DNA of 26,195 nt, taken from contig JARRMG010000011.1 in assembly GCA_037386265.1 (NCBI GenBank), positions 1-26,195 on the forward strand. Reading direction: 5' to 3'. A program made the translations under genes and the position numbers. Shown here one piece after another: positions 7,299-20,138 of the stretch (the stretch's first letter is position 1; the number at the start of each line of letters is the position of its first letter). The stretch comes from Nitrosopumilaceae archaeon (GTDB taxonomy: Archaea; Thermoproteota; Nitrososphaeria; Nitrososphaerales; Nitrosopumilaceae). Under the pieces are notes generated by a model. The model had not been told where the DNA came from and did no database searches. It saw nothing but the letters and a program-made list of their open reading frames with translations.

Positions 7299-7301
7299 CT
7301 C

Positions 7302-7400
7302 TTAACCACCCTCATCCAATTCATGGTTATTGCAAGTACAACCAGGATCTCTTATTTTCTTAGAGGCGCAACTGCAATCTTTGCAGCATCCATATTTCAT
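7302..7400 (-). CDS. 32-aa metallothionein-like microprotein
   Basis: Manual translation MKYGCCKDCSCASKKIRDPGCTCNNHELDEGG*, with 6 Cys and 1 His. Starts 1 nt after the upstream stop. Confidence 0.65.
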   Translation of the reverse strand: MKYGCCKDCSCASKKIRDPGCTCNNHELDEGG

Positions 7401-7401
7401 A

Positions 7402-7611
7402 TCAAGTAGACTCCAAGAATTCAGTGGAATTTTTTGTCATCTTTTTTTCATTCTTAAAGTGGCCTTGTAATTGAAAATAGATCACACTTGCCTGAATCTT
7501 TGATATTCCAAATCTTTCTTGTAAATATTCAATCATGGTAATTTCATTCATGATTTTACTCCCATTTGATGAATCTTGAAAGTTATTAGTAAGCACAGTT
7601 AAGAATTTCAT
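7402..7611 (-). CDS. 69-aa hypothetical protein, first gene of an operator-controlled operon
   Basis: ORF track; ATG lies 20 nt after the TAAATA box of the operator-TATA module at 7632-7658. Confidence 0.55.
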   Translation of the reverse strand: MKFLTVLTNNFQDSSNGSKIMNEITMIEYLQERFGISKIQASVIYFQLQGHFKNEKKMTKNSTEFLEST

Positions 7612-7631: not shown

Positions 7632-7658
7632 TATTTAACCTTGCCTTAACAATGTTAT
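7632..7658 (-). promoter_or_regulatory. Operator-TATA module 1
   Basis: TTAACAATGTTAT at 7646-7658 (1 mismatch to the palindrome), 8-bp spacer, TAAATA on the minus strand at 7632-7637. Confidence 0.7.
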
Positions 7659-7752
7659 CTCCTGTAAACGGATGATTGCCCTAAATCTTTTCAAAAATAG
7701 AGAAAAATGAACATATGTACAGTATTCTTCCCAACCCATTTTTGTTCAAGTT

Positions 7753-7884
7753 ATGAATATTGATGGCATGATCTTACAAGAATTTCGGGAATGTCAAAGC
7801 TGTAAAAAATATGGCTATAGCATTCCATTAAAACTCGAGGAGTCGGGTCGTTGGGTTTGTCCTATGTGCGATTATGATTATTGA
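7753..7884 (+). CDS. 43-aa zinc-ribbon microprotein
   Basis: Manual translation MNIDGMILQEFRECQSCKKYGYSIPLKLEESGRWVCPMCDYDY*, with CQSC...CPMC. Confidence 0.65.
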   Translation: MNIDGMILQEFRECQSCKKYGYSIPLKLEESGRWVCPMCDYDY

Positions 7885-7987
7885 TTTTCATAATTCTATC
7901 CTTTTGTAGTCTATAGCAGGATTATGAATTCGAAATTGCTTTTTAAGGCAACGGTCGGTTTGTTTTATATTAGTTTCAAGAATAAGC

Positions 7988-9535
7988 ATGTTGTTGGAAG
8001 GACAATTTGATAATCTTTTGCTTGAGAAGTTTAAACAAGACATATGGAGTAAGGTTCCTCATATTGACGAGCAGGATAAAACAAAGATAGTAAATGAAAC
8101 GCCTCTAGTTGATCTTACTGCATACCTCAAGGAATGTGCAAAAAATGTATACAATCTTAATCTCGATGACTCTGATCTCAAGGTTTTTGGTAAATTTGAA
8201 TCAAAATTACCAACAGGCTCAATCAAGGTAAGGCCTGCAGTTCACATAATTCATGATGCCATTGTAAATGGAAATCTAAAAACTGGACAAACCGTAATTG
8301 AGGCAACCTCTGGCAACTTTGGAATTGCTTTAGGGCAATTATCAAAACTCGGTTTGACTGTGATTTCACTGGTATCAAGGAGGCTTCAGGAAGGAGTTTT
8401 TGAGGAATTGAGAAATGAAAACATTCGAATTATGGATCTTGACATGGACATATGTCCTGCTCCTGGGATGAAAGATAGTGCAAATGATTTGACTGCAAAG
8501 GCAACTGCTGCAAATGTTCGCCAACAATTAACTGATCTTGGTTTTGATGTGGCAATATTTGACAGAGAAATGCAAGAGATTTTATCACTTTTGGCAAAAC
8601 AAGACATCATAAATTTGGCAAAGTTTCTGGCAAAGATTTACGGTTGCTTTTGCCCAGAGCAATATGACAATAAACTAAATCTTGATGTCCACAAGACAGT
8701 TACTGCACCTGAAATCGACCAACAATTACGGCAGTTGGGAGATTCTCTTGAAGATTATAAAGTTGTGTGCACATTTGGTACTGGTGGTACGTCAGGTGGC
8801 ATGAGTAGATATATTTCTGAAAAATATGGAAAAAAAGCCATTCATGTAGTATTTCCACAAAGCGCTCAAGACGTTGCAGGAATTAGGACAAAAGCCAAAG
8901 CATCTGGCTTGACACTTTATGAGCCACAAGAATATGCCGGACAACACGAAGTAGATTTTGAGCAGGTAAAACCTCTACTCAAATTTTTTGTGGACAAAGG
9001 ACACAGTATTGGTGAAAGCAGTGCTCTTGCACTTTATGCTGCAATCCAGTTGGCAAACTTTGGAAATGGTGGGAAGTTTGTAGTAATTGTAGCAGATGGT
9101 ATTGAAAAATACAAAAAGAATCTTGAAGTAATGACAAAAAAACAGACACGAACCCAAGTATCCCTTGATGAGGCAACTTCCAGTGCTGATGAATATGATA
9201 AGATAATTTGGATTCACACTCAATATACTCCAAAGCAAGAAGGAATAGAGCTTATTGCAAAATCTCTAGGAGTAGATCCATCAAAAATTTCAGTCCCTAC
9301 TGCGACAACTGTAGGAAAATTACTTGCGACACAAAAAGTCCCAGAAGAACTTAGCCCTGATCTTCAAGGAGGCAAGTCTTTACTTGTGTGTATGGCAGGT
9401 CAAACCTCACTTATGGCAGCCAAAGTCCTTGCAGGAAATGGTGTTTCCACTGAAAGTCTGATTGGAGGTATAACAGAGCTTCCAGAAGGAAAAAGCAAAA
9501 ATCTTTCTGATTTGATAAAGTATGCAACAGAGTAG
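7988..9535 (+). CDS. PLP-dependent cysteine-synthase-family enzyme with C-terminal rhodanese-like domain
   Basis: KFESKLPTGSIKVR (PLP lysine), IEATSGNFGIALG, GTGGTSGG phosphate loop and GESSALAL. The C-terminal LLVCMAGQTSLMAAKVL...SLIGG resembles a rhodanese active-site loop. Confidence 0.8.
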   Translation: MLLEGQFDNLLLEKFKQDIWSKVPHIDEQDKTKIVNETPLVDLTAYLKECAKNVYNLNLDDSDLKVFGKFESKLPTGSIKVRPAVHIIHDAIVNGNLKTGQTVIEATSGNFGIALGQLSKLGLTVISLVSRRLQEGVFEELRNENIRIMDLDMDICPAPGMKDSANDLTAKATAANVRQQLTDLGFDVAIFDREMQEILSLLAKQDIINLAKFLAKIYGCFCPEQYDNKLNLDVHKTVTAPEIDQQLRQLGDSLEDYKVVCTFGTGGTSGGMSRYISEKYGKKAIHVVFPQSAQDVAGIRTKAKASGLTLYEPQEYAGQHEVDFEQVKPLLKFFVDKGHSIGESSALALYAAIQLANFGNGGKFVVIVADGIEKYKKNLEVMTKKQTRTQVSLDEATSSADEYDKIIWIHTQYTPKQEGIELIAKSLGVDPSKISVPTATTVGKLLATQKVPEELSPDLQGGKSLLVCMAGQTSLMAAKVLAGNGVSTESLIGGITELPEGKSKNLSDLIKYATE

Positions 9536-9605
9536 ATTCTCTTAGCGAACAATTTTTGGAGTTTCCTAAACTAAAGAAAAGATAAGCATTTTATCAAATG
9601 ACAAT

Positions 9606-10442
9606 TTAGACCAAAATAATTCCTTCTCGAACCAAATATTCAATACCGGATGCAAAGTCCAGATCAGTAATCGAGCCTTCAGACCACCAGCAAGCATTGT
9701 TTTTTACCCATTGAGGAACCTCTTGTGTGTCACTAATTATTTTAGATTATGCTGGAACAACAATAATTCCATTATCTATAAGGTTGATAACAACTGAAAA
9801 AGACATTGGAGTTGCAAAGTTTCCGGCAGAGTCTTTTGCGGTACATTTGATAATGGTCTCACCAATACCGAAGAGAAATCCAGACTCAGGTTTGCATGTA
9901 GGAATAATTGATTCATCGACATCATCAATCACTAAAACATCAAACGTAACTGGAGTGAGTGCATCACTTGTTTCTGCCAAAACCACAATGTCTTCATGTT
10001 GAACAATTTCAGGTGGCATAACATCTTCAACGATTGGCACTCCTCCTGTGAAAAACATTGGGAGTTCTGCTTCTATTTTATCAAAAGTTATGTGAATAGA
10101 GTAATCACCACTTGTCTCAAATGATGTGCCTTTTGTGATAAAATTAAAGCTAAATGCGCCAAATTGACCAGGATCTGTCTGACCTGATTTTGCTAAATCT
10201 CCTGAAGGAGTCAAAACACTGTATTCTACTGAAAAGCCTGAATGAAGGTCTGCATCATAATTTTTTATTTTTCCGCTAACCCCAACACTTTCTCCATATT
10301 CATAAAAATTCTGGTTTGTGTGAGCATCGATGCTGAGTGGAAGTTGTGTCTCTGTATCCTCCTGAGCCATTGCTTGCATCAAGCTGGTGGCAGTAAACAA
10401 AATTGCAAAAAATACGATAAACGAATATTGAATCATTAACAA
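9606..10442 (-). pseudogene. Secreted HYR-like-domain protein with thaumarchaeal C-terminal repeat, interrupted by an in-frame TAA at 9747-9749
   Basis: Signal peptide and HYR-like segment (PPEI...VTFDV.VID.VD...TC.P.SG.LF.IGETII.CTAKDSAGN). The frame continues past the stop as SKIISDTQEVPQWVKNNACWWSEGSITDLDFASGIEYLVREGIILV* to 9606. Confidence 0.75.
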
Positions 10443-10528
10443 CCCTAGGTAAAATGATAACTTAAGCCTGTCTACTCTTCAAAGATAAAATTGATTCCTG
10501 AATTGTGAATTTTTAGAATGATTTGAAA

Positions 10529-10855
10529 TTATTTTTTGGAAATGATTTGATTCAAAGTTTTGAATGCTTCGGCATGTCTTTGAGGGGTAATCCATAATCT
10601 TTTGTATATTAAGTCAGTTTCCAGAACAATTGCTTTATCCTTTTTAGGCCTCTCAGAATCAAAATGAAACCAGTCACGAAAGTTACTTGTTCCTGAAATT
10701 CTATTTTTTCCTGAAAATATTCCCATTTTTTTCTCTGAAATGTTTTTTATGTGTTCAATTTTTACTTCTTTTTTACCCCAGGGCAAACACCATGCCTTGA
10801 ATGATATTTTATCCTGAAAAATTTGGATGTATTTGTCATTGTACAAAGCTTGCAT
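10529..10855 (-). CDS. Hypothetical protein, possibly bacterial-PH-like
   Basis: 108-aa ORF with a beta-rich pattern and terminal helix; family not firmly recognised. Confidence 0.65.
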   Translation of the reverse strand: MQALYNDKYIQIFQDKISFKAWCLPWGKKEVKIEHIKNISEKKMGIFSGKNRISGTSNFRDWFHFDSERPKKDKAIVLETDLIYKRLWITPQRHAEAFKTLNQIISKK

Positions 10856-10973
10856 ATGAGATCATCTATTTTAGATAATTTAAATAAATTTTTGAAAATC
10901 ACAACACTTGAGATTACCTTTGTGTATGTAAAGGGAATAAAATCTATTTTAATGAATTAAGAGTAGATTATCA

Positions 10974-11258
10974 GTGAATATTGAACAGGTATGCAAGGAT
11001 GTTTTAGACATTGATGACACAGTACGATTTTCAATGATTGTTAAGGAGGGTGTAAAGAAATTTGGAGGGTATAGATACAATACAGTGGGAATTTTAGATT
11101 CAGATGAACTAGACCAATCAATTTGGCATGCTAATGAAAGAATGGTTGGAAGAAAAATGGCAGAACACAAGCTTGGAAAGACAAGATACGCAATGGCCGA
11201 ATATGAGCGAGCCAAAAGAATAACATTTCCCTTGGAAAATAAAACATCCGAACCTTAA
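10974..11258 (+). CDS. DUF6659-like thaumarchaeal protein, probably C-terminally truncated
   Basis: C..VL.ID..VRF...; 'KLGKTRYAMAEYERAKRITFPL' motif. Ends abruptly at ENKTSEP, with the stop overlapping the convergent gene's stop. Confidence 0.65.
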   Translation: MNIEQVCKDVLDIDDTVRFSMIVKEGVKKFGGYRYNTVGILDSDELDQSIWHANERMVGRKMAEHKLGKTRYAMAEYERAKRITFPLENKTSEP

Positions 11259-11437
11259 GCCACTTTTGTATCTAATAATTTGTAATCCATATCCATTAAT
11301 GTACATTCTAAGTGTATTTGTTCCTCTGTCTCAAAATGACATTCTTTGCAAATACAAGTTATTCCCTCCTTGCATACAGGACATTTTTGTTTAATTTCTA
11401 ATTCTGCACCACATTTTCGGCACGATTCATCTCTCAT
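11255..11437 (-). CDS. 60-aa multi-Cys zinc-finger protein (start revised from 11512)
   Basis: MRDESCRKCG...CPVC...CKEC...HLEC; three CxxC pairs plus HxxC. Confidence 0.7.
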   Translation of the reverse strand: MRDESCRKCGAELEIKQKCPVCKEGITCICKECHFETEEQIHLECTLMDMDYKLLDTKVA

Positions 11438-11544
11438 AGAGTAGTTAAGTTTCCATTTGATATTAAACTCGGTCAACAGATCAGCTGACCAATCAATTAT
11501 GCAATTTACCACAATCTATGAAGAAGAATCACTATAGGTTAATC

Positions 11545-11703
11545 ATGACAACACAAACAACTCAAACACGCCCCACAAGCACCTGGGACAAAATGGTTCA
11601 TGCCCCATTTAGCAAAGTCGTCAAGTTTGACCTTATTTGTATGGGAATTGGCGTCGTAATGGGAATGGGAATTGGTGCCTTCTTAGTTACAGGAGGAGCA
11701 TAA
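11545..11703 (+). CDS. 52-aa single-TM membrane protein (start revised from 11518)
   Basis: MTTQTTQTRPT...; C-terminal hydrophobic helix with Gly repeats (GIGVVMGMGIGAFLV). Confidence 0.6.
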   Translation: MTTQTTQTRPTSTWDKMVHAPFSKVVKFDLICMGIGVVMGMGIGAFLVTGGA

Positions 11704-11734
11704 CCTCCATAACTAATTTTTTATTTAATAGGAT

Positions 11735-12510
11735 TTGATATTAAATATGCAATTTTCTCGTATCGAGCCAGCTTACACAACAAAAGATGGGTGTAGATTG
11801 GTTTGGGAAGGAAAAGATGAAGATGATTCAGATACCGTAATTTTAAACAAAGAAGAGTTTGATTCACTTGTTGAGATTTTTAAAAAAGATGTTACAGGAA
11901 CCGTCACTTTAGAAGATCAAATTAGTACTATAATGGTTAATTCAGATGTTACGCAGTTTACTTTACAAGGACATAGGCCTCTTGAGGCAGACACCTTTGA
12001 ATTACAAAAACAATTGCTTGAGTTTGCCAAAATTCCACATGAGCCCAAATATGTTCAAATTAGTACAAAGACATTCTATCCATCAGTATGGATTAGAAAA
12101 GAAACAACTAATAAAAAAGAATGGAAAATTGACAAAATCTTGGCAGCAGCTGATACTGCCCCTACAGCTGGAAACTTTCAAGGTCTCAAGATATTTTATG
12201 TCAAAAACAAGAATACCAAGCAAGCCTTAGTTGAGGCTGCAAACAAGCAACCTTATGTCAATGCTCCTGTAGTCTTGGTTTTTTGTATGGATCCTTCTCG
12301 TGTAAAGCTGAAATTCCCTCCTGAGATTTTAGAGAAATTTTCTTTACAGGATGCTACTTTAGCTGCATCCTATTCACAGATTGCAGCCACAGGTCTTGGC
12401 CTAAGCTCAATTTGGATTGGAATGCTTGATGAGAAAAAAGTGCAAGATATCCTTGGCACTGATTTGAGACCTTCATCGATATTGTGCAGTTAATCGAAGT
12501 AATTGAATAA
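11735..12510 (+). pseudogene. Nitroreductase-family protein with N-terminal extra domain and two apparent deletions
   Basis: AADTAPTAGNFQG and GLSSIWIGM are present, but the RRSxRxF FMN-binding motif is absent (junction about 12100-12120). The ORF ends ILCS* without GYP, while a likely true C-terminus LIEVIE* follows in another frame (12490-12510). Confidence 0.65.
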
Positions 12511-12572
12511 TCTGATTAGTATCACCTCATTTTCATCGGGTTTTTATGTAGCAAATCAAAACATGATTACTC

Positions 12573-13373
12573 ATGGTAGATATCATTGAGGAAACAGCAG
12601 ATTATGTTTTAGATCTTGCCAGTCCTCAAAGATTAAACATTTTATTCATTTTATTAGGAGAAAGTTCAACACCCACTCAAATTGCCACAAAACTTGAGGC
12701 TACAAAACAAGAGGTTCATAGAAATTTTACAAGACTAGTTGAAAGTGGATTAATTGAAAAAAGAGTTGATGGAAAATATTCACTTACCACCTTCGGTGAG
12801 GTTGTTTGTACACAGGTCCCAACAGTTGTTTTCTTGTCTCAGAATCGTAAGTATTTTGAGGAGCATACCCTAGGAGACATTCCTTATAAATTCAAAATGA
12901 GATGCGGTCAGCTTGCCAATGGTAAGTACATCAAGGGATTCTCAAAGGTGATGGAACAATGGAAGTCAATTTACAAAAATTCCAATGAATATATCTTTGA
13001 GATTTTATCTGAGGTTCCACTTGATCTTATAGAACCCTTGGTTAAACGAGTCAAAAAGGGAGTAAAATTCAACTATATTTTCTCCGAATCAGCCGTCATT
13101 CCAAAGGGACGAAAATCATTGTTAAAAAAATTGGGATTTGATAAATTGATGGAAAAGGGGCTTGTAGAACGAAAGATGAAACTCAATGTCCAGACAGTTT
13201 TGGTGTTAAGCGAAAAAGAGGCATGTGTGATGTTTCCAAGCAAGGATGGAGAATCAGACATTAGCGAGATGTTTTACAGTGATGACCCGATGTTTCATGA
13301 GTGGTGTCTTGATTATTTCAGATACTCTTGGTATGGCTCGGATTTATTTGAAGAAAGCAAGTTAAAGGAATAA
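12573..13373 (+). CDS. ArsR-like HTH transcriptional regulator with C-terminal DUF1724-like domain
   Basis: LASPQRLNIL...PTQIATKL..TKQEVHRNFTRLVESGLIEK...YSLT wHTH; C-terminal 'FHEWCLDYFRYSW'. Confidence 0.8.
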   Translation: MVDIIEETADYVLDLASPQRLNILFILLGESSTPTQIATKLEATKQEVHRNFTRLVESGLIEKRVDGKYSLTTFGEVVCTQVPTVVFLSQNRKYFEEHTLGDIPYKFKMRCGQLANGKYIKGFSKVMEQWKSIYKNSNEYIFEILSEVPLDLIEPLVKRVKKGVKFNYIFSESAVIPKGRKSLLKKLGFDKLMEKGLVERKMKLNVQTVLVLSEKEACVMFPSKDGESDISEMFYSDDPMFHEWCLDYFRYSWYGSDLFEESKLKE

Positions 13374-13434
13374 GAATTTCTAGAATCATTAAAAATATTT
13401 TTTCAATATGAAGTAACTATATCAAACCTAAAGG

Positions 13435-13605
13435 TTAGGTTTGATTTTTCATCCTCATAATAATTTGATTCAACGTGCCTGTACTATACTCTATACCGTG
13501 CTCTACCATTGAGTGTTTTTGAAACTTGTTGATAGCATCAGGTTCGTTCTCGTTTACTTCAAAATCACAGTCAAACCCATAGTTTTTGCAGATGATTTTT
13601 ACCAT
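13435..13605 (-). CDS. DUF1059-family small metal-binding protein
   Basis: CKNYGFDCDF...H...EHG motif; paralog at 17249-17413. An alternative ATG at 13620 is possible. Confidence 0.75.
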   Translation of the reverse strand: MVKIICKNYGFDCDFEVNENEPDAINKFQKHSMVEHGIEYSTGTLNQIIMRMKNQT

Positions 13606-13771
13606 AATTCTTTTGAGCATATGGAAATAAAACTAGTAGTTTGTTCAACATCATACAATCATCAAGTTTAGGCTGGATTTCTTGTCATTAGACACATCAA
13701 ATGTTGACTATAATTTCCTATCAATAAATCAGGTTTTAACCATATTTTGCAGTATGTTTTTTTAAAAAATA

Positions 13772-14569
13772 TTAGAAAAACAAACTTTGAATCACAATAT
13801 AACCGGCAATTACAAAAAGCAATACTGCAAAAATCTTCGTTAGGTTTTCCTTTGGTATTTTATCTGTAAGCTTAATTCCAAACAAACCTCCCACTACTCC
13901 CCCAATAACAAACATTGAGGCAATCAACACATCTACGTTTCCTGCAACAAGATAACTAGAAGCAGTAGTCAATCCAAATGCACTAACTGAAACCAACGAG
14001 GTTCCAATGGCATCAATTATGCTTAACCCTCCAGAATACATCAACGTTGGAACAATCAAAAAACCTCCACCAATTCCAAAGTATCCAGCAAGTGTTCCAA
14101 CAAAAAATCCAGATAATGGAATATTCTTTTTTGATAACATTATAGTTGATTGTTTTGCAGAATTTTGAAGATCATATTTTGATGCCTTTTTTCTTAGCAT
14201 CAATACAGCTATTGTTCCCATAAAGATTGCAAAAAACAACAACAAGTTTGAAGATGGTGTTAACAATCCTAATTGTGCTCCAAGTAACGTGCCACCTATA
14301 CCAGGTATTGCAAATACAAGACCTTGTTTGAATTTAACATGGTTTTTTCTTTTATGCCCTAAAAGATTGATAGCTGCAATCACACCGACTGCCAAAGCCG
14401 AAGTTCCAATGGCACCATGAACATCACGGACTCCTACAACATATAGTAAAAGGGGAACTGCTAGAACTGAGCCACCTCCACCAATTAATCCTAGACTAAA
14501 ACCAACAAGTATTCCCGAAAATACAGAAAGAAAAATGACCAGTGGCTCTAATACAAAATCAACTGGCAT
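13772..14569 (-). CDS. TauE/SafE (TSUP) family membrane transporter
   Basis: GLIGGGGSVLAVPLL, AIGTS, duplicated GYFGIGGGFLIVP...AIGTSL; about 8 TM. Overlaps the upstream gene by 11 nt. Confidence 0.9.
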   Translation of the reverse strand: MPVDFVLEPLVIFLSVFSGILVGFSLGLIGGGGSVLAVPLLLYVVGVRDVHGAIGTSALAVGVIAAINLLGHKRKNHVKFKQGLVFAIPGIGGTLLGAQLGLLTPSSNLLLFFAIFMGTIAVLMLRKKASKYDLQNSAKQSTIMLSKKNIPLSGFFVGTLAGYFGIGGGFLIVPTLMYSGGLSIIDAIGTSLVSVSAFGLTTASSYLVAGNVDVLIASMFVIGGVVGGLFGIKLTDKIPKENLTKIFAVLLFVIAGYIVIQSLFF

Positions 14570-15962
14570 CTACAGCACATCTGTTCGGTCCAATCTCCAA
14601 GTCAGGCACATCTGATACTACCAATTCAAGTTCGCCCTTGTTGACTGCGATGATTTTCCTGTAATTCATTGGTCGTGGAAGGGTCTTTTCAACTACTTTT
14701 TTGACAAACTCGTCTTTAGGAATATCAAGCCATGGAAGGTTCTTTGATTGCTGAATTGTGGAGTAAAATGCATCATCTGTTGCTTTTACATTTTCTCCAT
14801 GATGGGTTGGGAAGACCATCGTATAATGAGGAAGCTGCAATAGCTTTTCATGCAGAGTCTCATACAACTCTTCAGTAAATTCTTCGGCTTTGTCTCGTAA
14901 ATCTGGTCGTCCAATTGACTCTACAAACAAGATATCTCCAGTAAAGACATATTTTTCATCAACTACAAAGCTCAAGCTTCCAGGTGTGTGACCAGGTGTG
15001 TGAATTACACGAAGAGTTGTTTTTCCAAATGGAATTGTCTCTCCACCAGAAACAAAGCTTGCATCAAAATCATATCTCTCATGCTTTGAGAGATACAGTT
15101 TTGCATTTGTTGCCTTTGCAAGATCCCTGGCTGAAGATACATGGTCTGCATGCTGATGAGTATCAAAGACTTTGGTTATTTTGAAACCCTTTTGCTTTGC
15201 AATTTCTACATACTTTTCAATCGGATAAAGAGGATCAATTACTATTGCCTCATTTTTAGACTCTACGATGTGGGACAAACATCCTTTTCCGACTTTCTGC
15301 ACTTGAATTACTTGCACTGGCTCATTTACTACAGTTACAGGTTTTAGCACCTGATTCCATTTTGTTAATCCACCTGCAAGAGTAGAAGAGTATATTCCGG
15401 CTCTTGCTAATGCAAAGCTTGCAACCATAGCGCGATTCCCATGCGGACAGATTGTCACAATCTCTTTGTCTTGAGGAATTTTTTGCAGGGTTTTGGGATC
15501 GAAAAGATCAGATAGTGGAATGTTTACACTGCCTGGTATTTGATATTCAGAAAACTCCTCAGTATCCCTTACGTCCAAAAGGTACAATTCATCAAGTTTT
15601 GAGATTACTTCATCAGGAGTGATAGATTTTCCAGTCTTGCCTGTTGTAAGATCTCCATTCCATCCAGAAAAGCCACCTTGCAAATAATAAGCATCAAGGC
15701 CAAATCCTGCCATCATTGCAGCAATTTCTTTTGAGATTTCTTCAGGCTCAGATATTAGTACAATTTTGGTATTTTGTGGGATTTTAGGCATGATCTTTTC
15801 TTTTGCATGAGTATCACAGACTGCATGAACAGATCCAGGAACATGAGATTCTTCAAATTGTTCAGATGTTCGTAGATCAAAGATAAGCATTGGGGTTTGC
15901 TGAGCCACATTCTGGCTTAGCTGTTGGGTTGATATTGTTAGATTTTTGGAAATTTGATTCAT
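14559..15962 (-). CDS. Rhodanese-rhodanese-metallo-beta-lactamase (persulfide dioxygenase-like) fusion; start revised from 16010
   Basis: First rhodanese (FDLR...HVPGS) has no active Cys; second (LDVR...IPGSVNIP...ICPHGNRA) has Cys. MBL motifs DTHQHADH, HTPGHTPGS, FTGDILF, GRPDL and PTHHG. Confidence 0.85.
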   Translation of the reverse strand: MNQISKNLTISTQQLSQNVAQQTPMLIFDLRTSEQFEESHVPGSVHAVCDTHAKEKIMPKIPQNTKIVLISEPEEISKEIAAMMAGFGLDAYYLQGGFSGWNGDLTTGKTGKSITPDEVISKLDELYLLDVRDTEEFSEYQIPGSVNIPLSDLFDPKTLQKIPQDKEIVTICPHGNRAMVASFALARAGIYSSTLAGGLTKWNQVLKPVTVVNEPVQVIQVQKVGKGCLSHIVESKNEAIVIDPLYPIEKYVEIAKQKGFKITKVFDTHQHADHVSSARDLAKATNAKLYLSKHERYDFDASFVSGGETIPFGKTTLRVIHTPGHTPGSLSFVVDEKYVFTGDILFVESIGRPDLRDKAEEFTEELYETLHEKLLQLPHYTMVFPTHHGENVKATDDAFYSTIQQSKNLPWLDIPKDEFVKKVVEKTLPRPMNYRKIIAVNKGELELVVSDVPDLEIGPNRCAVDAS

Positions 15963-16025
15963 GACAGATTTGGCCTTTTGTAAAATATAATCAAGAAGTT
16001 TATAGTGCAATCAAAAGCAAGCATA

Positions 16026-16550
16026 ATGGCTTTGAGCAAAAAAACCTCCACCATTACCTTTCGAATAGATGAAAAGTATGAGAAGGGATTAAGAAAAGAA
16101 GCAGAAGAAAAAAGAATTAGTCTCAATACTTTGGCAAATCAAATCTTTGGAGACCACGTGGAGCTTGATCAATATATGAAAAAATTTGGAATGGTTGAGA
16201 TGAGCAAGGGTTCTTTTCGTGAGTTGCTCAACTCTTTAGATGAGAAAAATATCATTAATTTTGCAAAATCAATTGGATCAAAAGAACCCAAAGACTTTAT
16301 CCTGTTCAAATGGAAGGAGCTTTCTCCACAATCAATTTCAGATTTTATCAAAATGTATTTTGAGCATTGCGGTTATGGAATGTGTGACATGGAATCTGGC
16401 GATAGTGGTAGAATAGTTAGTGTTCACCATGAATTTGGAAATAAGGGGTCTATTTTCTTAAAGGCATTTTTAGAGGCCATCATTCAATCAACTCTTGAAA
16501 AAGAGGGAAATGTAAAAATGACTGAAAATTCAGTCACTCTAAAGTTTTAA
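16026..16550 (+). CDS. RHH-type DNA-binding protein with C-terminal effector-like domain (start revised from 16005)
   Basis: TSTITFRIDEK....LRKEAEEKRISLNTLANQIF is an RHH N-terminus; divergent from the MBL operon. Confidence 0.75.
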   Translation: MALSKKTSTITFRIDEKYEKGLRKEAEEKRISLNTLANQIFGDHVELDQYMKKFGMVEMSKGSFRELLNSLDEKNIINFAKSIGSKEPKDFILFKWKELSPQSISDFIKMYFEHCGYGMCDMESGDSGRIVSVHHEFGNKGSIFLKAFLEAIIQSTLEKEGNVKMTENSVTLKF

Positions 16551-16570
16551 TTAAAAAACTTCATAAGTTC

Positions 16571-17224
16571 TTAGTTTAGACCCATTGTAGATTTAGTTAT
16601 CTTCATAATTATTCCACTAAATGAAATTGAAGATAGAAAATACCACGCCCAAAGATAAACTGCGTTTTCTTGGGGACAAATATTATTTGGATCTAGTGCT
16701 TGTTCAGCAGTACAAGTAAGATGAAAAAAATTACCAGGAAAAATATTTAGAGACACAGGAGACATGGCTACAGTATAAGTGAATAATTGAGGCAACACCA
16801 AATAAAAAATCAAAATTAGAGGAATAAAAGTAAACATCATGGGCTTCATGTTCATTTGCATCATCTCCATTGACATCTTGTTCATGTAGCTAGATTTTTT
16901 GTTTAATTCCGTAATTTTTTCTTGGTCTCTTGATCTCATAGCAGACATTCGTTCCTTCTGCCATCCCTTTGTTTCCTTCATAATGCGGTTTAGTTTTGTC
17001 TGATCAACAACTTTCCTTCTAATTATAGAGTTGATAAAATTTAACATAATTCCAAATCCAGCAACTGCAAATAATGTTGGAACGATTCCTTTTACAATTG
17101 GGTCTTCGCTACCTAAAGAACCTCTCCCATTTGCAAAAATGGCAAAAAGTCCTCCATCATTTCCTTGAAGAAAAACGGAATTTATGAAAAAGGAGAGATT
17201 AGATAAATCAAAAAAGTCTATCAT
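16571..17224 (-). CDS. EMC3/TMCO1-like (DUF106, Oxa1 superfamily) membrane protein
   Basis: TM1, basic Met-rich coiled coil (VDQTKLNRIMKE...MEMMQMNMKPMMFTFIP), and C-terminal WAWYFLSS; GGAG SD-like site upstream. Confidence 0.8.
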   Translation of the reverse strand: MIDFFDLSNLSFFINSVFLQGNDGGLFAIFANGRGSLGSEDPIVKGIVPTLFAVAGFGIMLNFINSIIRRKVVDQTKLNRIMKETKGWQKERMSAMRSRDQEKITELNKKSSYMNKMSMEMMQMNMKPMMFTFIPLILIFYLVLPQLFTYTVAMSPVSLNIFPGNFFHLTCTAEQALDPNNICPQENAVYLWAWYFLSSISFSGIIMKITKSTMGLN

Positions 17225-17248
17225 GTAAATGTCTCCTGCGGTTTCAGA

Positions 17249-17413
17249 TTACGTGGTCTTTCTCAAAATAAATTGCATTAATGCTTCTTTAGAATAATCT
17301 ATCCCATGTTCACTTTCTGTATGGTCTCTAAACTCTTCTATGACTTGTTCAACCTCCCCTTCAGTCACAAAATCACATTCAAATCCATAATTACTACAAC
17401 TCAATTTTGTCAA
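17249..17413 (-). CDS. 54-aa DUF1059-family protein (not in ORF track)
   Basis: Manual translation from TTG: MTKLSCSNYGFECDFVTEGEVEQVIEEFRDHTESEHGIDYSKEALMQFILRKTT*. Confidence 0.8.
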   Translation of the reverse strand: MTKLSCSNYGFECDFVTEGEVEQVIEEFRDHTESEHGIDYSKEALMQFILRKTT

Positions 17414-17438
17414 TTTTGTTTATTTTGACATTTTACAT

Positions 17439-17465
17439 TTATTATACTTCGATTAACTTTGTTAA
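17439..17465 (-). promoter_or_regulatory. Operator-TATA module 2
   Basis: TTAACTTTGTTAA at 17453-17465, 8-bp spacer, TAATAA (minus) at 17439-17444; 25 nt to the DUF1059 TTG. Confidence 0.7.
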
Positions 17466-17490
17466 GTCTAACTTAACAAATTAAAATTTA

Positions 17491-17600
17491 ATGCAGAAGC
17501 AATTTTAGAGATTTGAGGCTATTCTGTCCAAAAGTACATGAAACATGGACAGACTGAATTAGGAACCTTTTTTCTCAAGATGCACAGCATGCTTCTGCAT
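17491..17600 (-). ncRNA. Candidate structured RNA A (110 nt) closed by ATGCAGAAGCA/TGCTTCTGCAT; contains a 13-aa micro-ORF
   Basis: 11-bp terminal inverted repeat (17491-17501 / 17590-17600), inner TTGAG/CTCAA and TCTGTCCA/TGGACAGA (17523-17530 / 17546-17553) stems. Starts 21 nt after the TATA of module 3. Micro-ORF MQKHAVHLEKKGS at 17559-17600. Confidence 0.55.
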
Positions 17601-17621
17601 AGATAACCATTAATTTTTTTA

Positions 17622-17648
17622 TATTTAGATAATGCTTAACTTTGTTAT
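17622..17648 (-). promoter_or_regulatory. Operator-TATA module 3
   Basis: TTAACTTTGTTAT at 17636-17648, 8-bp spacer, TAAATA (minus) at 17622-17627. Confidence 0.7.
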
Positions 17649-17675
17649 GTTAGGAGTTTTTCGATTTAACCCAAA

Positions 17676-17840
17676 TTAACTTTCTCGTTTAGGTTTTGAA
17701 TGAGCCTTTATCATGTGTTTTTTTGTTCTTTCAGGATCGGCAAATTCCATTTTACATATTTTGCATTCGTTAGTGAATTTTTGATCTCGTTTGAAAATAT
17801 TTTTTACCAGACTTTTTGTAGATGATATTTTTTGTTTCAT
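17676..17840 (-). CDS. 54-aa C2H2 zinc-finger protein (not in ORF track)
   Basis: Manual translation MKQKISSTKSLVKNIFKRDQKFTNECKICKMEFADPERTKKHMIKAHSKPKRES*, with C-x2-C-x3-F-x8-H-x4-H. Confidence 0.8.
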   Translation of the reverse strand: MKQKISSTKSLVKNIFKRDQKFTNECKICKMEFADPERTKKHMIKAHSKPKRES

Positions 17841-17861
17841 ATACTAGCAGCAAATCTTTGA

Positions 17862-17888
17862 TTATAAGGTATTGCTTAACAATGTTAA
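17862..17888 (-). promoter_or_regulatory. Operator-TATA module 4
   Basis: TTAACAATGTTAA at 17876-17888, 8-bp spacer, TTATAA at 17862-17867; 21 nt to the ATG at 17840. Confidence 0.75.
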
Positions 17889-17944
17889 TCATCTAAAAAT
17901 CTACATTCATAATAGTTAAAGAAGCATCACAATAAGTACCTTTA

Positions 17945-18280
17945 TTGGCTGATTTTAGAAAATATAGGGATAGAATATACATTGTAAAGGACATTATCCT
18001 TACTCTTTCAGAATATGGCCAGCTTAACCAAACTTCCCTTTTTAGTTTTTGTGGATTGAACATATCAAAACATAAAGGAATTTTAGATAATCTTGAAGAA
18101 AATGAGATGATCCAGAGTGAGGAAGTTTTGGAAGGAAAACGAAAGATAACATTATTCAGGGCAACTCAAAAGGGAAAGGATTTTTGCAATCAGATAATAG
18201 AACCTTATGAAAAATTGTTTCCAAGAAAAGAAAAATCCTCAGATTCTTCACATAACTTAAAATTTCTACTAATCATCTAG
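17945..18280 (+). CDS. Winged-helix DNA-binding protein
   Basis: YRDRIYIVKDII..L...GQLNQTSLFSFCGLN...ILDNLEENEMI...FRATQKGKDF is an archaeal wHTH pattern. Confidence 0.8.
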   Translation: MADFRKYRDRIYIVKDIILTLSEYGQLNQTSLFSFCGLNISKHKGILDNLEENEMIQSEEVLEGKRKITLFRATQKGKDFCNQIIEPYEKLFPRKEKSSDSSHNLKFLLII

Positions 18281-18637
18281 ATGGAATTTCTTAGCGATGG
18301 CTTCATCAAGACTATCTCTTTTCTCTAAATAATCACAATATCTTTTATTCCATGAGTTTAGGGACTGGAATTGTCTCAAGCCTGCCACCAGCCAAATTCC
18401 AGAGGTAATTATGACCATTGTCAAAAGAATAATCAGCATAAAACCAAATTCATTTTCATTTTCAATTAAAAGTAAAAATTTGGGATGTGTAATCAGGTAG
18501 GAAGAAATTCCAATTGCAAATGGAGCTAATATGAGGGCCGACAAGGAAACGCCCAACATTATACCTTTAATGTGTTGGATTTTTTCAATGAAACTATCCA
18601 TAGAACTGAGAATATCATTGGATTCTTGTTCAGGCAT
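18269..18637 (-). CDS. Two-TM membrane protein
   Basis: 122 aa with two hydrophobic helices and a charged C-terminal helix. Confidence 0.7.
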   Translation of the reverse strand: MPEQESNDILSSMDSFIEKIQHIKGIMLGVSLSALILAPFAIGISSYLITHPKFLLLIENENEFGFMLIILLTMVIITSGIWLVAGLRQFQSLNSWNKRYCDYLEKRDSLDEAIAKKFHLDD

Positions 18638-18750
18638 ACCTAATCCTTTTTAGTAGAGGTATAAAATCAGTTCTTTTCGAGTCTGAATAATCTAGTGAAA
18701 ATTTGAATTTCTGTATTCTTTGCATTCTGCATAGATTTCTGGGGTTCAGG

Positions 18751-18791
18751 TATTTACTTGATGCTTAACAATGTTAATTCAATCTTTTTAG
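18751..18791. promoter_or_regulatory. Operator-TATA module 5 (apparently bidirectional)
   Basis: TTAACAATGTTAA at 18765-18777. Minus side: 8 bp to TAAATA (18751-18756), then ATGCAGAATGCA at 18732. Plus side: 8 bp to a weaker TTTTAG (18786-18791), then 21 nt to the ATG at 18813. Confidence 0.65.
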
Positions 18792-18812
18792 TGTCAAAAT
18801 GGATTATTGATT

Positions 18813-18917
18813 ATGAGTAAGAAAGAAAAAGAAGAGGAAGAAGATCTTGCCGCTAAAAAGAATGATGATTGGTGGCGTTTGGAAAAATCTCAAATAGGTA
18901 GGAGAAAATTCGCTTAA
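18813..18917 (+). CDS. 34-aa charged microprotein (not in ORF track)
   Basis: MSKKEKEEEEDLAAKKNDDWWRLEKSQIGRRKFA*. Contains an AGGAG SD-like site for the next gene, which starts 1 nt after its stop. Confidence 0.6.
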   Translation: MSKKEKEEEEDLAAKKNDDWWRLEKSQIGRRKFA

Positions 18918-18918
18918 A

Positions 18919-19116
18919 ATGGGCTATAATTGCCATGGAGTATGTGAATTTTACAAAACTACTAGAATACCCACCTCAAAAAAATATCAAAGTGGTCAAA
19001 AAAGATGTTCACTATGTGATGTTTTTCTTGCAACTTTGAATCTCAGATGTCCATGCTGCAATTCAAAACTGAGATCAAAATCAAGAAAAAATAAAAGAGA
19101 TTTATTCTATTATTGA
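18919..19116 (+). CDS. 65-aa Cys-rich zinc-binding protein
   Basis: CHGVC...CSLC...CPCC followed by a basic tail (LRSKSRKNKR). Confidence 0.75.
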   Translation: MGYNCHGVCEFYKTTRIPTSKKYQSGQKRCSLCDVFLATLNLRCPCCNSKLRSKSRKNKRDLFYY

Positions 19117-19124
19117 GTCTCAAG

Positions 19125-19151
19125 TTAACAATGTTAAGCATGGCCTAAATA
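19125..19151 (+). promoter_or_regulatory. Operator-TATA module 6
   Basis: TTAACAATGTTAA at 19125-19137, 8-bp spacer, TAAATA at 19146-19151; 22 nt to ATGCAGAAGCA. Confidence 0.75.
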
Positions 19152-19173
19152 TCTCAATTCCTAAAAATTTTTG

Positions 19174-19291
19174 ATGCAGAAGCAATCTACTCCAAAAGGA
19201 AAAATGAAAAGCTTGGATGTAAATTCGTCCTTTACAAGTTCTCATTATATGCCTTAGACATAACTATATTTCCTAGAATCTGCTTCTGCAT
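19174..19291 (+). ncRNA. Candidate structured RNA B (118 nt) closed by ATGCAGAAGCA/TGCTTCTGCAT; contains a 27-aa micro-ORF
   Basis: Same 11-bp terminal arms as element A (19174-19184 / 19281-19291); inner AGGAAA/TTTCCT (19197-19202 / 19269-19274), TGTAAA/TTTACA (19218-19223 / 19231-19236) and TATG/CATA stems. Micro-ORF MQKQSTPKGKMKSLDVNSSFTSSHYMP at 19174-19257. Confidence 0.55.
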
Positions 19292-19314
19292 TATTATTTA
19301 ATTAGAGAAACAAG

Positions 19315-19341
19315 TTACCATTGTTAATCATGCCCTAAATA
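19315..19341 (+). promoter_or_regulatory. Operator-TATA module 7
   Basis: TTACCATTGTTAA at 19315-19327 (1 mismatch), 8-bp spacer, TAAATA at 19336-19341. Near-duplicate of module 6 (caagttaacaatgttaagcatggcctaaata vs caagttaccattgttaatcatgccctaaata). Confidence 0.7.
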
Positions 19342-19342
19342 A

Positions 19343-19615
19343 TCGGAATCAAATATAATTTATTCAGGTAATTCACCTTCGTTAACGGTTAAAAATGGAA
19401 ATCTAGTACAAATTCACCTAATTAATGAAGAAAAAAATGAAGCCTCAACAAAGTCAAAACATAATCTCAACATTGATGAATTTAATGTGCATACCGGAGA
19501 CCTAGGATATTTCCAAACAAAATCAATAACATTTCTCGCCGATAAAAATGGTACCTTTGAATACTATTGTTCTATACACCCCGAAATGAAAGGAATTCTA
19601 ACTGTAGAACCCTAA
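19343..19615 (+). pseudogene. Cupredoxin (type-1 copper) domain lacking start codon and signal peptide
   Basis: The open frame reads ...SPSLTVKNGNLVQIHLINEEK...KHNLNIDEFNVHT...TFLADKNGTFEYYCSIHPEMKGILTVEP*, with His...Cys-x2-His-x2-Met ligands. No ATG/GTG/TTG occurs before the first His ligand. Confidence 0.75.
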
Positions 19616-19643
19616 TCTAATTTTTCATAATAGAAAAAGAAAG

Positions 19644-20138
19644 TTATTTGGAGTTCTTTTGACCCATTCTAGAGACCTCTCCACTCTTAATTTTATTAAA
19701 AGCATCAATGACTTCCTCATCAGTAGATTCAAAACTTGGTGTTTTCTTTCTTTGCTTATCCTTAGTTACAACTGAAGTGCCAATAGCCTTTGCAACTATA
19801 ATGGGTGGTTCTAGTACATTGCAGGCAGACTCTTGTGGCAGATCATTGGATGGAGAAATTATTTTGAAAGCCTCAAAAACTATTTTTCTGCTTGTATTTC
19901 CAGCACTAATGATTTTTCCAGTAACTTCTAAAAAATCTCCAGCATGAACTGGTTCAAGAAATTCTACTTTTTCATATGCCCTAAGAAGCCCTTCATCTCC
20001 ATCATATCGAATCGTCAATTCTGTTGCAACATCCCCAAAAAGCTTCATAACATGAGCACCATCAACCAATCCTCCTTCATAATGAACATCACTTTCACTA
20101 ATTCGCACACGTAATTTTACATCAGGATAAATTTCCAT
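19644..20138 (-). CDS. kal: Hotdog-fold aminoacyl-CoA ammonia-lyase (3-aminobutyryl-CoA ammonia-lyase / beta-alanyl-CoA ammonia-lyase family)
   Basis: RVRISESDVHYEGGLVDGAH...LFGDVATEL.IR.DGDEGL.RAY..VEFL.PV.AGDFLE..G.I...GNTSRK..FEA.K...DKQR closely follows Kal/Acl family motifs. Exact substrate is uncertain. Confidence 0.75.
   Translation of the reverse strand: MEIYPDVKLRVRISESDVHYEGGLVDGAHVMKLFGDVATELTIRYDGDEGLLRAYEKVEFLEPVHAGDFLEVTGKIISAGNTSRKIVFEAFKIISPSNDLPQESACNVLEPPIIVAKAIGTSVVTKDKQRKKTPSFESTDEEVIDAFNKIKSGEVSRMGQKNSK

Follow-up and report, generated by a model that had tools for sequence, protein, structure and literature searches.

Seven promoters within one stretch of an archaeal contig (Nitrosopumilaceae archaeon, JARRMG010000011.1, 26,195 nt; this whole stretch is referred to here as the window) carry the same inverted repeat at what appears to be a constant distance from their TATA-like hexamer. 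This arrangement raises the questions of whether the repeat is a genuine regulatory element, which factor reads it, and whether binding activates or represses transcription.

A palindrome recurs at a fixed distance from TATA

A motif search of the window recovered perfect palindromes at 17453, 17876, 18765 and 19125 and one-mismatch copies at 7646, 17636 and 19315, exactly the set listed in the original prediction, and all seven sites lie between ORFs. Dinucleotide-preserving shuffles yielded 1.82 +/- 1.34 expected sites, and none of 100 shuffles reached seven. The whole 1.34-Mb draft genome contains 10 perfect copies, four of which fall inside 1.7 kb of the window. The modules are organised as follows:

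7632-7658, minus strand: module 1 (remote); palindrome 7646-7658 (ATAACATTGTTAA on the minus strand), spacer 7638-7645, TAAATA 7632-7637, ATG 7611, 20 nt past the hexamer
17439-17465, minus strand: module 2; palindrome 17453-17465, spacer 17445-17452, TAATAA 17439-17444, TTG 17413
17622-17648, minus strand: module 3; palindrome 17636-17648 (one mismatch), spacer 17628-17635, TAAATA 17622-17627
17862-17888, minus strand: module 4; palindrome 17876-17888, spacer 17868-17875, TTATAA 17862-17867, ATG 17840
18751-18791, bidirectional: module 5; palindrome 18765-18777
18751-18764, minus strand: module 5, minus side; spacer 18757-18764, TAAATA 18751-18756
18778-18791, plus strand: module 5, plus side; spacer 18778-18785, degenerate TTTTAG 18786-18791, ATG 18813 at 21 nt
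19125-19151, plus strand: module 6; palindrome 19125-19137, spacer 19138-19145, TAAATA 19146-19151
19315-19341, plus strand: module 7; palindrome 19315-19327 (TTACC half-site), spacer 19328-19335, TAAATA 19336-19341

Read on the promoter strand, the spacer measures 8 nt in all seven sites, its sequences being those initially reported, and it is followed by TAAATA in five of them and by TTATAA (17862-17867) and TAATAA (17439-17444) in the other two. An ATG or TTG was confirmed 20, 25, 21, 21, 18 and 22 nt past the hexamer in six sites, while site 19315 is without a start codon. Start codons or RNA 5' ends at 18-25 nt past the hexamer resemble leaderless transcripts, and the palindromes at 17876 and 18765 serve the opposite strand too.

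The link to TATA extends beyond the window. When the 10 perfect genomic copies were scanned in both orientations, T-W-A-W-W-W peaked at offset 8 (8 of 20 orientations, compared with 0-1 at most other offsets). Perfect palindromes pooled from this genome and from about 58 related loci gave 225 distinct oriented cases. TAAATA stood at offset 8 in 45 of them and at any other offset between 0 and 24 in just one; other TATA hexamers stood at offset 8 in 38, and no other single offset had more than 8.

The element had been described as TTAAC-N3-GTTAA. Its half-sites held up, but the free centre did not: among 105 distinct modules the middle reads A (0.93), A/T and T (0.88), so that the true element is the 13-bp palindrome TTAACAWTGTTAA, followed by GCA at the 5' end of the spacer (0.78/0.72/0.87). 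Palindrome, GCA and hexamer are conserved and the remaining spacer and downstream bases vary, a footprint-like pattern. With seven promoters in the window, roughly ten others spread over further contigs and an arrangement kept in dozens of related genomes, the proposal of a regulon is borne out, and these comparisons support the view that the palindrome is a protein-binding element.

Modules precede micro-protein genes and a structured RNA family

The following protein-coding features lie behind the modules:

7152-7611, minus strand: three close-packed small ORFs behind module 1, encoding 69 aa (7402-7611), a 32-aa Cys-rich peptide (7302-7400) and a 48-aa ribbon-helix-helix-like protein (7152-7298)
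17249-17413, minus strand: DUF1059 protein, 54 aa, module 2 target (Pfam PF06348, E = 7e-07, above cut-off)
17676-17840, minus strand: C2H2-type zinc-finger micro-protein, 54 aa, module 4 target (weak Pfam C2H2 matches, below cut-offs)
18269-18637, minus strand: membrane protein, 122 aa, two hydrophobic segments (2-TM), behind module 5, with a ~90-nt leader beginning ATGCAGAATGCA
18813-18917, plus strand: 34-aa charged peptide, module 5 plus side (sequence reading, ORF list)
18919-19116, plus strand: 65-aa zinc-ribbon protein, module 5 plus side (ORF list)
19343-19615, plus strand: cupredoxin open frame without start codon (Pfam Cupredoxin_1, E = 1.3e-07)

Neither the 69-aa ORF nor the 122-aa membrane protein matched any Pfam or NCBIfam model. 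Several promoter-gene pairs are conserved: the orthologue of module 2 is found in genomes G005 and G013, and the module 4 promoter is kept together with its zinc-finger gene in 15 loci (giving a 15-member micro-protein family), with the start 21 nt past the hexamer in every one. In relatives, the plus side of module 5 reads TATTAA and precedes the same 33-35-aa peptide gene, and the charged-peptide family spans 12 loci with starts 20-22 nt past the hexamer. The one-mismatch site of module 7 recurs in G005 and G009. In G005 and G013, the cupredoxin orthologues have their ATG 21 nt past the hexamer and are longer by about 80 N-terminal residues, a hydrophobic segment among them; the cupredoxin of the window is a 5'-truncated copy.

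Two modules are followed by structured RNAs:

17491-17600, minus strand: RNA element A, 110 nt; starts 21 nt past the module 3 TAAATA, 11-bp closing stem AUGCAGAAGCA/UGCUUCUGCAU, then a T-rich tract
19174-19291, plus strand: RNA element B, 118 nt, canonical family member; starts 22 nt past the module 6 hexamer

Element A folds at -32.8 kcal/mol (z = -4.1) and element B at -29.4 kcal/mol (z = -3.85). At least 20 loci have a homologue of element A downstream of a promoter of this type. The short ORF opened by element A shows no conservation, measuring 13 aa here and 35 aa in G013. An alignment of 22 sequences revealed a closing stem of 12 pairs, four of them with compensatory changes, and conserved interior blocks; the ~120-nt family, element A included, has no match in Rfam.

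A winged-helix protein is the probable binder

Sites on other contigs and one 10 kb off within the window require a trans-acting factor, and the cluster itself contains a candidate:

17945-18280, plus strand: winged-helix protein, 111 aa, TTG start, candidate regulator (Pfam HTH_45, 27.5 bits; cut-off 25.5)

Its AlphaFold2 model (pLDDT 84.5) consists of a wHTH and a C-terminal helix, and the best fold matches were the PadR-type Rv3488 (TM 0.71/0.76), MarR, LmrR and Sso10a-2; the protein is thus predicted to have the fold of the dimeric wHTH regulators PadR, MarR and Sso10a. G37, L38, N39, K42 and H43 of the recognition helix are invariant in 37 homologues, a counterpart of the invariant TAAC/GTTA core. 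On the plus strand, 56 nt separate the module 4 palindrome from the winged-helix gene downstream of it. That gene's own promoter is without the 8-bp geometry, the palindrome being ~20 bp upstream of its AATAGTTAAAG box.

When the winged-helix protein was used to fetch loci from Nitrosopumilus, Nitrosarchaeum, Nitrosotenuis and Nitrososphaeraceae, the module lay inside ~1.5 kb in nearly all of them. Among 121 sampled genomes of the class, each of the 18 genomes other than this one that has a close orthologue (at least 69% identity) carries 2-10 palindromes in a cluster around the gene, and those listed without any winged-helix homologue have 0-1; the genomes are mutually related and not independent. 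Part of this co-occurrence reflects whether a single gene island is present, and it therefore cannot tell the winged-helix protein apart from the products of further genes on that island, such as the C2H2 micro-protein. The membrane-protein gene and the winged-helix gene occur as a pair in Nitrosopumilaceae, in Nitrososphaeraceae (locus L050: 3339-3749) and at a paralogous locus, G000:C20. There, the paralogous regulator is flanked by operator variants (GTAACAATGTTAT + 8 nt + TTTAAA), which seem to drive a paralogous membrane protein. Since the arrangement is conserved across ammonia-oxidising archaea beside the winged-helix protein, we consider this protein the probable binder of the palindrome.

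Position and spacing lean towards activation

The palindrome occupies about -48 to -36. Archaeal activators typically bind just upstream of BRE/TATA, so that sites ending upstream of the BRE are activator-typical, whereas known repressors usually overlap the promoter, TATA or TSS or lie downstream (PMC5512572). On this analogy, position and invariant spacing would favour activation, which we regard as somewhat the likelier sign of regulation. The reading towards which we lean is that TTAACAWTGTTAA is the operator of a dimeric factor, likely the winged-helix protein, that activates by recruiting TFB or TBP. A dimer on the 13-bp palindrome would stand exactly 8 bp before the TATA hexamer, contact the TFB/TBP complex at BRE/TATA and promote pre-initiation complex assembly, a single palindrome serving one promoter or two divergent ones. 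Such promoters would yield leaderless mRNAs for tiny zinc-finger and zinc-ribbon proteins, the 2-TM membrane protein, the cupredoxin and the DUF1059 protein, and also the ~120-nt structured RNAs.

The original prediction went further, in that the activator site was thought to compensate for weak BREs. This was not established: the 8-nt spacers scored 0.21 bits, compared with 0.50 in 149 other leaderless-type promoters of this genome, a deficit that is only a trend (Mann-Whitney p = 0.13) in a comparison weakened by the faint background BRE signal of the genome itself, and their G/C at -3 to -1 was 1.35 compared with 0.74. Moreover, TAAATA is the commonest TATA hexamer among the 149 promoters, so that the TATA of the promoters studied here is not weak.

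Both results suit a possible but distinctly less likely reading, in which the same operator and the same protein act in repression: bound at -48 to -36, the protein would extend its footprint over the BRE position, block TFB and keep otherwise strong promoters silent until a signal frees them. The conserved GCA after the palindrome sits where TFB should contact DNA, the footprint of a wHTH dimer would probably extend over the BRE position and so suit repression equally well, and PadR and MarR, the nearest structural relatives of the winged-helix protein, are mostly repressors in bacteria. However, steric occlusion needs no base-pair-exact spacing kept across families, and the sites lie where activators, rather than repressors, are usually found.

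Other factors or functions explain the modules less well

It is unlikely that a different protein binds the palindrome. Candidates would be the C2H2 micro-protein, which shares the divergent promoter, the ribbon-helix-helix protein (7152-7298) and a regulator not linked to the cluster. In 15 loci the cluster comes with the C2H2 gene, a second C2H2 gene stands at an isolated bidirectional site (G000:C46) with no winged-helix gene nearby, and co-occurrence does not separate genes that share an island. Yet Nitrososphaeraceae loci keep the module with winged-helix and membrane-protein genes, the stretch inspected there (L050) shows no C2H2 ORF, the paralogous C20 locus holds only regulator and membrane protein, and a 6-1-6 palindrome is more easily reconciled with a symmetric dimer than with one zinc finger.

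Ammonia-oxidising archaea encode multiple TFBs, and the promoter-proximal half-site with GCA, near the BRE position, is better conserved than the distal flank; an extended core-promoter signal read by one TFB/TBP paralogue with no separate regulator is nevertheless very improbable, as the palindrome is complete with an equally conserved distal half, works in either direction, stops 8 bp short of the hexamer and is hence not TATA-adjacent like a BRE, and tracks an accessory regulator gene rather than basal factors. Recombination or mobile-element sites bounding exchangeable cassettes, with TATA proximity secondary, would fit the patchiness of the cluster inside one genus (14 of 34 genomes) and the variable module content, but are hardly credible given the exact spacing to TATA and start codon, the lack of a recombinase gene among the ORFs read at 16.5-20.2 kb of the window, and isolated copies that precede ordinary genes (alcohol dehydrogenase, MoxR ATPase).

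Relation to known regulators

Our literature search found no paper describing this promoter system. PadR-type Rv3488 and LmrR, the best full-length fold matches, are of similar size and likewise combine a wHTH with a C-terminal helix, but identity is 16-17%, the winged-helix protein has no PadR match in Pfam, and PadR proteins are bacterial repressors with other operators. Sso10a/HTH_45 (ArnR1-like) proteins of Thermoproteota share the HTH_45 match and the wHTH with a long C-terminal helix, and Sso10a-2 is one of the structural matches, although the protein falls below the cut-off of the NCBIfam Sso10a model (28, cut-off 60). Sso10a proteins are chromatin proteins, to our knowledge described without a defined operator, whereas the winged-helix protein is linked to one precise palindrome.

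Among activators, Ptr2 of Methanocaldococcus jannaschii (Lrp/AsnC family) also uses palindromic sites upstream of BRE/TATA and activates through TBP recruitment (PMC5512572). It has two sites per promoter rather than the single one seen here, and the present candidate, a winged-helix protein of ~100 aa with PadR/Sso10a-like features, matched no Lrp-type model of Pfam or NCBIfam. The TFB-RF1 (PF1088) site at the pf1089 promoter of Pyrococcus furiosus and the Sulfolobus ara-box likewise lie immediately upstream of BRE/TATA and are proposed to recruit TFB to promoters with a non-optimal BRE (PMC5512572). Those systems belong to other phyla and govern a single promoter each or a small regulon for sugar use, whereas the palindrome type described here serves 7-17 promoters per genome, is often bidirectional and keeps its spacing to the base pair, BRE weakness being only a trend. 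In the ammonia oxidiser Nitrososphaera viennensis, shared upstream motifs were proposed to mark co-regulation of copper-responsive genes; they resemble the palindrome in being shared upstream motifs, but have other sequences (TTCSGSMTTTGWACYANT, an A/T-rich 27-mer), no described fixed relation to TATA and other gene sets (PMC7785015).

An operator-like palindrome at a fixed distance from TATA

The module described here consists of a 13-bp palindrome of the TTAAC-N3-GTTAA type, an 8-nt spacer and a TATA hexamer, and is named by the start of its palindrome. When the window was searched for this palindrome with one mismatch or fewer, the same seven sites as in the original prediction were recovered, and none other:

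17453, 17876, 18765 and 19125: perfect palindromes
7646, 17636 and 19315: palindromes with one mismatch

Dinucleotide-preserving shuffles of the window gave 1.82 +/- 1.34 such sites, and seven were reached in 0 of 100 shuffles. All seven sites are intergenic, as had been claimed, and the fixed gap of 8 nt to the hexamer was likewise found in every module (TAAATA five times, TTATAA and TAATAA once each, read on the promoter strand). A start codon behind the hexamer had been proposed for six cases and was found in six, with ATG or TTG at 20, 25, 21, 21, 18 and 22 nt; module 19315 is without one. Module 18765 is built in both directions: on its plus side TTTTAG stands 8 nt away and is followed after 21 nt by an ATG, before a 34-aa peptide and a zinc-ribbon gene. 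Relatives have TATTAA in place of TTTTAG.

The draft genome that contains the window comprises 334 contigs and 1.34 Mb, with 35% G+C and a completeness of 74%, and its relatives place it in the Nitrosopumilaceae. DNA of the window region was matched in salt-marsh, marsh, wetland and sediment metagenomes; for 17200-19700 and 17420-19400, the datasets listed included no RNA run. Only ten perfect copies of the palindrome occur in the whole genome, four of which lie inside a single 1.7-kb stretch of the window. Around these perfect copies the T-W-A-W-W-W hexamer shows a sharp peak at offset 8, so that the positional link to TATA on which the original prediction depended is clearly present genome-wide. 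The proposal that the element defines a regulon is also borne out by modules of like build on the contigs C25 (two), C46 (two, one of them two-way), C125, C165, C175 and C266 (two). The genes behind these modules encode a 149-aa protein of unknown family, DUF6659 proteins, a Cache-like protein, a second C2H2 micro-protein, a 490-aa protein, an alcohol dehydrogenase and a MoxR-type ATPase. Because the genome is fragmented and incomplete, the roughly 17 modules counted give a minimum size for the regulon. The short contigs C25, C125 and C266 carry near-identical copies of the module-driven 149-aa and DUF6659 genes, which are paralogues or else reflect a mixture of strains in the assembly, and the three contigs may be strain variants of a single locus; the DUF6659 frame on C266 is shortened to 27 open codons, compared with 135-136 aa on C25 and C125.

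We refined the motif on a pool of 105 distinct modules, taken from relatives as well as from this genome. Its supposedly free central bases turned out to be A (0.93), A/T and T (0.88), so the element is the 13-bp palindrome TTAACAWTGTTAA. Its spacer opens with G-C-A (0.78/0.72/0.87) and closes with C (0.64). A mirrored TATA signal stands on the distal side of the palindrome, again at 8 nt, which shows that a large number of the palindromes act for a pair of divergent promoters. Of 225 distinct oriented perfect palindromes, 45 have TAAATA at offset 8 and one has it at any other offset from 0 to 24; other TATA hexamers occurred 38 times at offset 8 and at most eight times at any other offset. 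The site is over-represented, intergenic and kept at orthologous promoters while the flanks diverge, as expected of an operator.

Recurrent target genes and a putative small-RNA family

Across many species the same genes recur directly behind a module.

Recurrent targets of the module, with starts 20-22 nt past the hexamer
C2H2 micro-protein: 15 loci
33-35-aa charged peptide: 12 loci
Cupredoxin with N-terminal hydrophobic segment: 11 loci
2-TM membrane protein: 9 loci
145-149-aa protein: 6 loci
DUF1059; MoxR ATPase: further recurrent targets

The cupredoxin frame of the window (19343-19615, plus strand) lacks the start codon and about 80 N-terminal codons when compared with its orthologues in the relatives G005 and G013, while its promoter module is intact; either a recent 5' deletion or a variant of the assembly probably accounts for this truncation.

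Behind modules 17636 and 19125 there is no conserved ORF. Instead, the predicted start site opens an element of 110 nt in the first case and of 118 nt in the second:

17491-17600 (-): RNA element A, behind module 17636
19174-19291 (+): RNA element B, behind module 19125

Both have an 11-bp closing stem (AUGCAGAAGCA/UGCUUCUGCAU) followed by T-rich tracts. At least 20 loci have homologous elements of about 104-133 nt behind a promoter of this type (related loci L026-L045, L065 and L076-L078), and these elements always start about 21 nt after the module TATA. An alignment of 22 sequences revealed conserved interior blocks and a closing stem of 12 pairs, four of which show compensatory changes. 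Searches against Rfam gave no match at the gathering threshold for the window and none at E <= 1 for 17400-19400. The elements look like an undescribed small-RNA family under module control. Reading element A as a micro-ORF was unsupported, as the ORF length varies (13 vs 35 aa); element B could conceivably contain a small ORF, given that 27-30-aa ORFs starting with MQK are kept in relatives.

A winged-helix protein as candidate regulator

A candidate for the factor that binds the palindrome is encoded in the middle of the cluster, and a membrane-protein gene is paired with it:

17945-18280 (+): 111-aa winged-helix protein, the putative regulator
18269-18637 (-): 122-aa 2-TM membrane protein, behind module 18765

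The former matches the Pfam family HTH_45 (PF14947) with 27.5 bits at a cut-off of 25.5, and stays below threshold with the narrower NCBIfam Sso10a model (28 vs a cut-off of 60). Its AlphaFold2 model (pLDDT 84.5) predicts a winged helix-turn-helix with helices at residues 4-24, 29-36 and 44-52 and a wing at 56-73, followed by a long C-terminal helix (75-91), and the best fold matches were the small PadR-type protein Rv3488 (TM 0.71/0.76), MarR proteins, LmrR and Sso10a-2 (4hw0). In this model the likeness to PadR is one of fold only: the PadR Pfam profile gave no match to the protein at E <= 0.1. A search of solved structures with its sequence returned chance-level matches only, headed by a peroxiredoxin at E = 0.02. 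Prediction of a homodimer scored 0.37 against a mark of 0.42, which speaks neither for nor against a dimer. Among 37 homologues, the residues that open the predicted recognition helix are invariant, and so is the TAAC/GTTA core of the operator.

Regulators of the cluster type share a conserved hydrophobic C-terminal tail (18245-18280), which reads ...LKFLLII here and ...LGCLLFI in many relatives, and shorter paralogues are without it. The tail is modelled with low confidence and might contact the membrane or the membrane partner.

To follow the system across genomes, 56 loci were fetched with the winged-helix protein from one-genome-per-species collections covering Nitrosopumilus, Nitrosarchaeum, Nitrosotenuis, Nitrososphaeraceae and others. 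In nearly all of them a palindrome followed after 8 nt by an A/T hexamer lies within about 1.5 kb of the regulator gene. Per 6 kb, loci from Nitrosopumilaceae contain two to seven perfect palindromes; in Nitrososphaeraceae one site is retained upstream of the regulator gene, TTAACAAGGTTAA followed at 8 nt by TATTAA, and a variant site stands before the convergent membrane-protein gene. Co-occurrence was assessed in 121 genomes drawn evenly from the class, for which the relaxed pattern TAAC-N3-GTTA-N9-TWAWWW proved too permissive, with controls as frequent as the real pattern, and the strict 13-mer was used instead. Its counts are bimodal. Each of the 18 other sampled genomes whose orthologue reaches 69% identity or more contains 2-10 copies, grouped within 2-6 kb together with the regulator gene; where the homologue is a more distant, long-form one, the count is 1-7, and 0-1 copies were found in the listed genomes without any homologue. 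The presence of sites thus tracks that of the regulator, but the gene and its sites travel as one island and the genomes are related. The genes that flank the cluster on either side lie on separate contigs in relatives, an arrangement that speaks neither for nor against a simple insertion.

The same genome encodes a second, more distant paralogue of the regulator together with a paralogue of the 2-TM membrane protein (C20:1000-1900). Variant operators are found there, namely cTAACAATGTTAc and GTAACAATGTTAT, the latter with TTTAAA at 8 nt and placed as the promoter of the membrane-protein paralogue. Half-sites of this unit read GTAAC...GTTAY vs TTAAC...GTTAA in the main system, a difference in sequence that suggests two parallel systems in one cell with diverged half-site edges.

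In view of its linkage to the sites, the co-occurrence, the paralogue with variant operators and the invariant helix residues, the winged-helix protein is the best candidate for the palindrome-binding factor, and we consider it rather likely to be that factor. In its own promoter, which is built differently, about 20 bp separate the palindrome from a conserved AATAGTTAAAG box downstream, and any autoregulation would therefore work differently. A conserved block, AATAGTTAAAGAAGCA/AATAGTTAAAGTAGCA, is located at 17905-17925 (+) in the window and at about 2960-2985 in the loci L025 and L036-L045; about 20 nt separate it from the 17876 palindrome on its upstream side and about 24 nt from the regulator start on its downstream side, and it is probably the TATA region of the regulator's own promoter.

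Activation or repression from the palindrome

Taking the start codon of the leaderless genes as +1, the hexamer lies at about -27 to -22 and the palindrome at about -48 to -36, with the spacer between them (about -35 to -28) where the BRE would be. In the seven window modules and in 83 of the conserved modules counted, the palindrome ends 8 bp upstream of the hexamer, with no overlap with TATA or the transcription start site. The archaeal activators Ptr2, TFB-RF1, the ara-box factor and EarA bind directly 5' of the BRE and recruit TBP or TFB (PMC5512572), and like their sites, the palindrome is upstream of and adjoins BRE/TATA. A dimer on the palindrome would be able to touch the initiation complex at BRE/TATA, and the symmetry of the site would permit its use by two divergent promoters. 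Position, base-pair-exact spacing across families and symmetric two-way use together favour activation, and on this arrangement of sequences we judge it somewhat probable that the palindrome is an activation site.

The original prediction had gone further and proposed an activator that compensates for weak BREs. Activation is favoured by position and spacing, but the argument from weak BREs was not established: module spacers scored 0.21 vs 0.50 bits in 149 background leaderless-type promoters (p = 0.13), a crude background set to which the comparison was restricted because poor start calls had blurred a profile built on every first ATG. Against the same crude set, the spacers contain more G/C at -3 to -1 (1.35 vs 0.74); before the hexamer, the background promoters are A-rich at -7 to -4 and T-rich at -3 to -1. 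TAAATA, moreover, is the commonest hexamer of the genome. With the BRE weakness non-significant and the hexamer the commonest one, a bound factor that acts as a repressor by occluding TFB is a serious rival, though we hold it to be the less likely reading; archaeal repressors usually overlap the promoter or sit downstream of it (PMC5512572). An integron attC-like origin of the palindromes or the RNA arms was rejected, given that there is no integrase among the ORFs read between 16.5 and 20.2 kb, the TATA geometry is exact and the arms are unlike attC core sites.

Activation from the palindrome could also be part of a two-gene signalling unit, shared by several families of ammonia-oxidising archaea, in which the regulator and its ever-present 2-TM partner switch on a stress programme from divergent promoters. 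In this scheme the regulator would be retained or set free by the membrane protein, perhaps via the hydrophobic C-terminal tail, and a freed dimer would activate two divergent pre-initiation complexes together from one palindrome; the programme, for metal or redox stress, would comprise the zinc and copper micro-proteins and the new structured small-RNA family. We regard this extended scheme as speculative and quite improbable.

Ammonia-oxidising archaea account for a large share of global nitrification, and to our knowledge there is no genetic system for them and almost no defined pair of transcription factor and operator. What is offered here is a sharply defined operator, an obvious candidate regulator, a compact promoter set with single-base-pair geometry and a conserved small RNA. 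Operator, candidate regulator, targets and RNA are all present in cultured strains, which makes promoter control directly testable in this group and opens a way to study several micro-proteins that are so far uncharacterised. The fixed gap of 8 bp and the use of one palindrome in both directions are useful for understanding how archaeal regulators contact TFB and TBP, and are relevant to archaeal transcription as well as to nitrifier biology. Transcription-factor operators that lie upstream of archaeal core promoters are already known as a kind of element; searches of the open-access literature on the motif and on Nitrosopumilus regulators yielded no account of this motif, of its link to the regulator family, of the regulon or of the RNA family. 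The copper-limitation motifs reported for copper-responsive genes of N. viennensis (PMC7785015) differ from the palindrome in sequence.

Genes neighbouring the modules

Two further stretches of the window adjoin the cluster and its remote module:

16571-17224 (-): EMC3/TMCO1-like membrane-insertase gene
7152-7611 (-): three packed micro-ORFs driven by the remote module 7646

A second, more distant copy of the insertase gene is present in the relative G013, and the copy that adjoins the cluster may belong to the accessory island. The three micro-ORFs include a 32-aa peptide with seven cysteines, and a 48-aa ribbon-helix-helix-like protein (7152-7298) could be a second-tier regulator.
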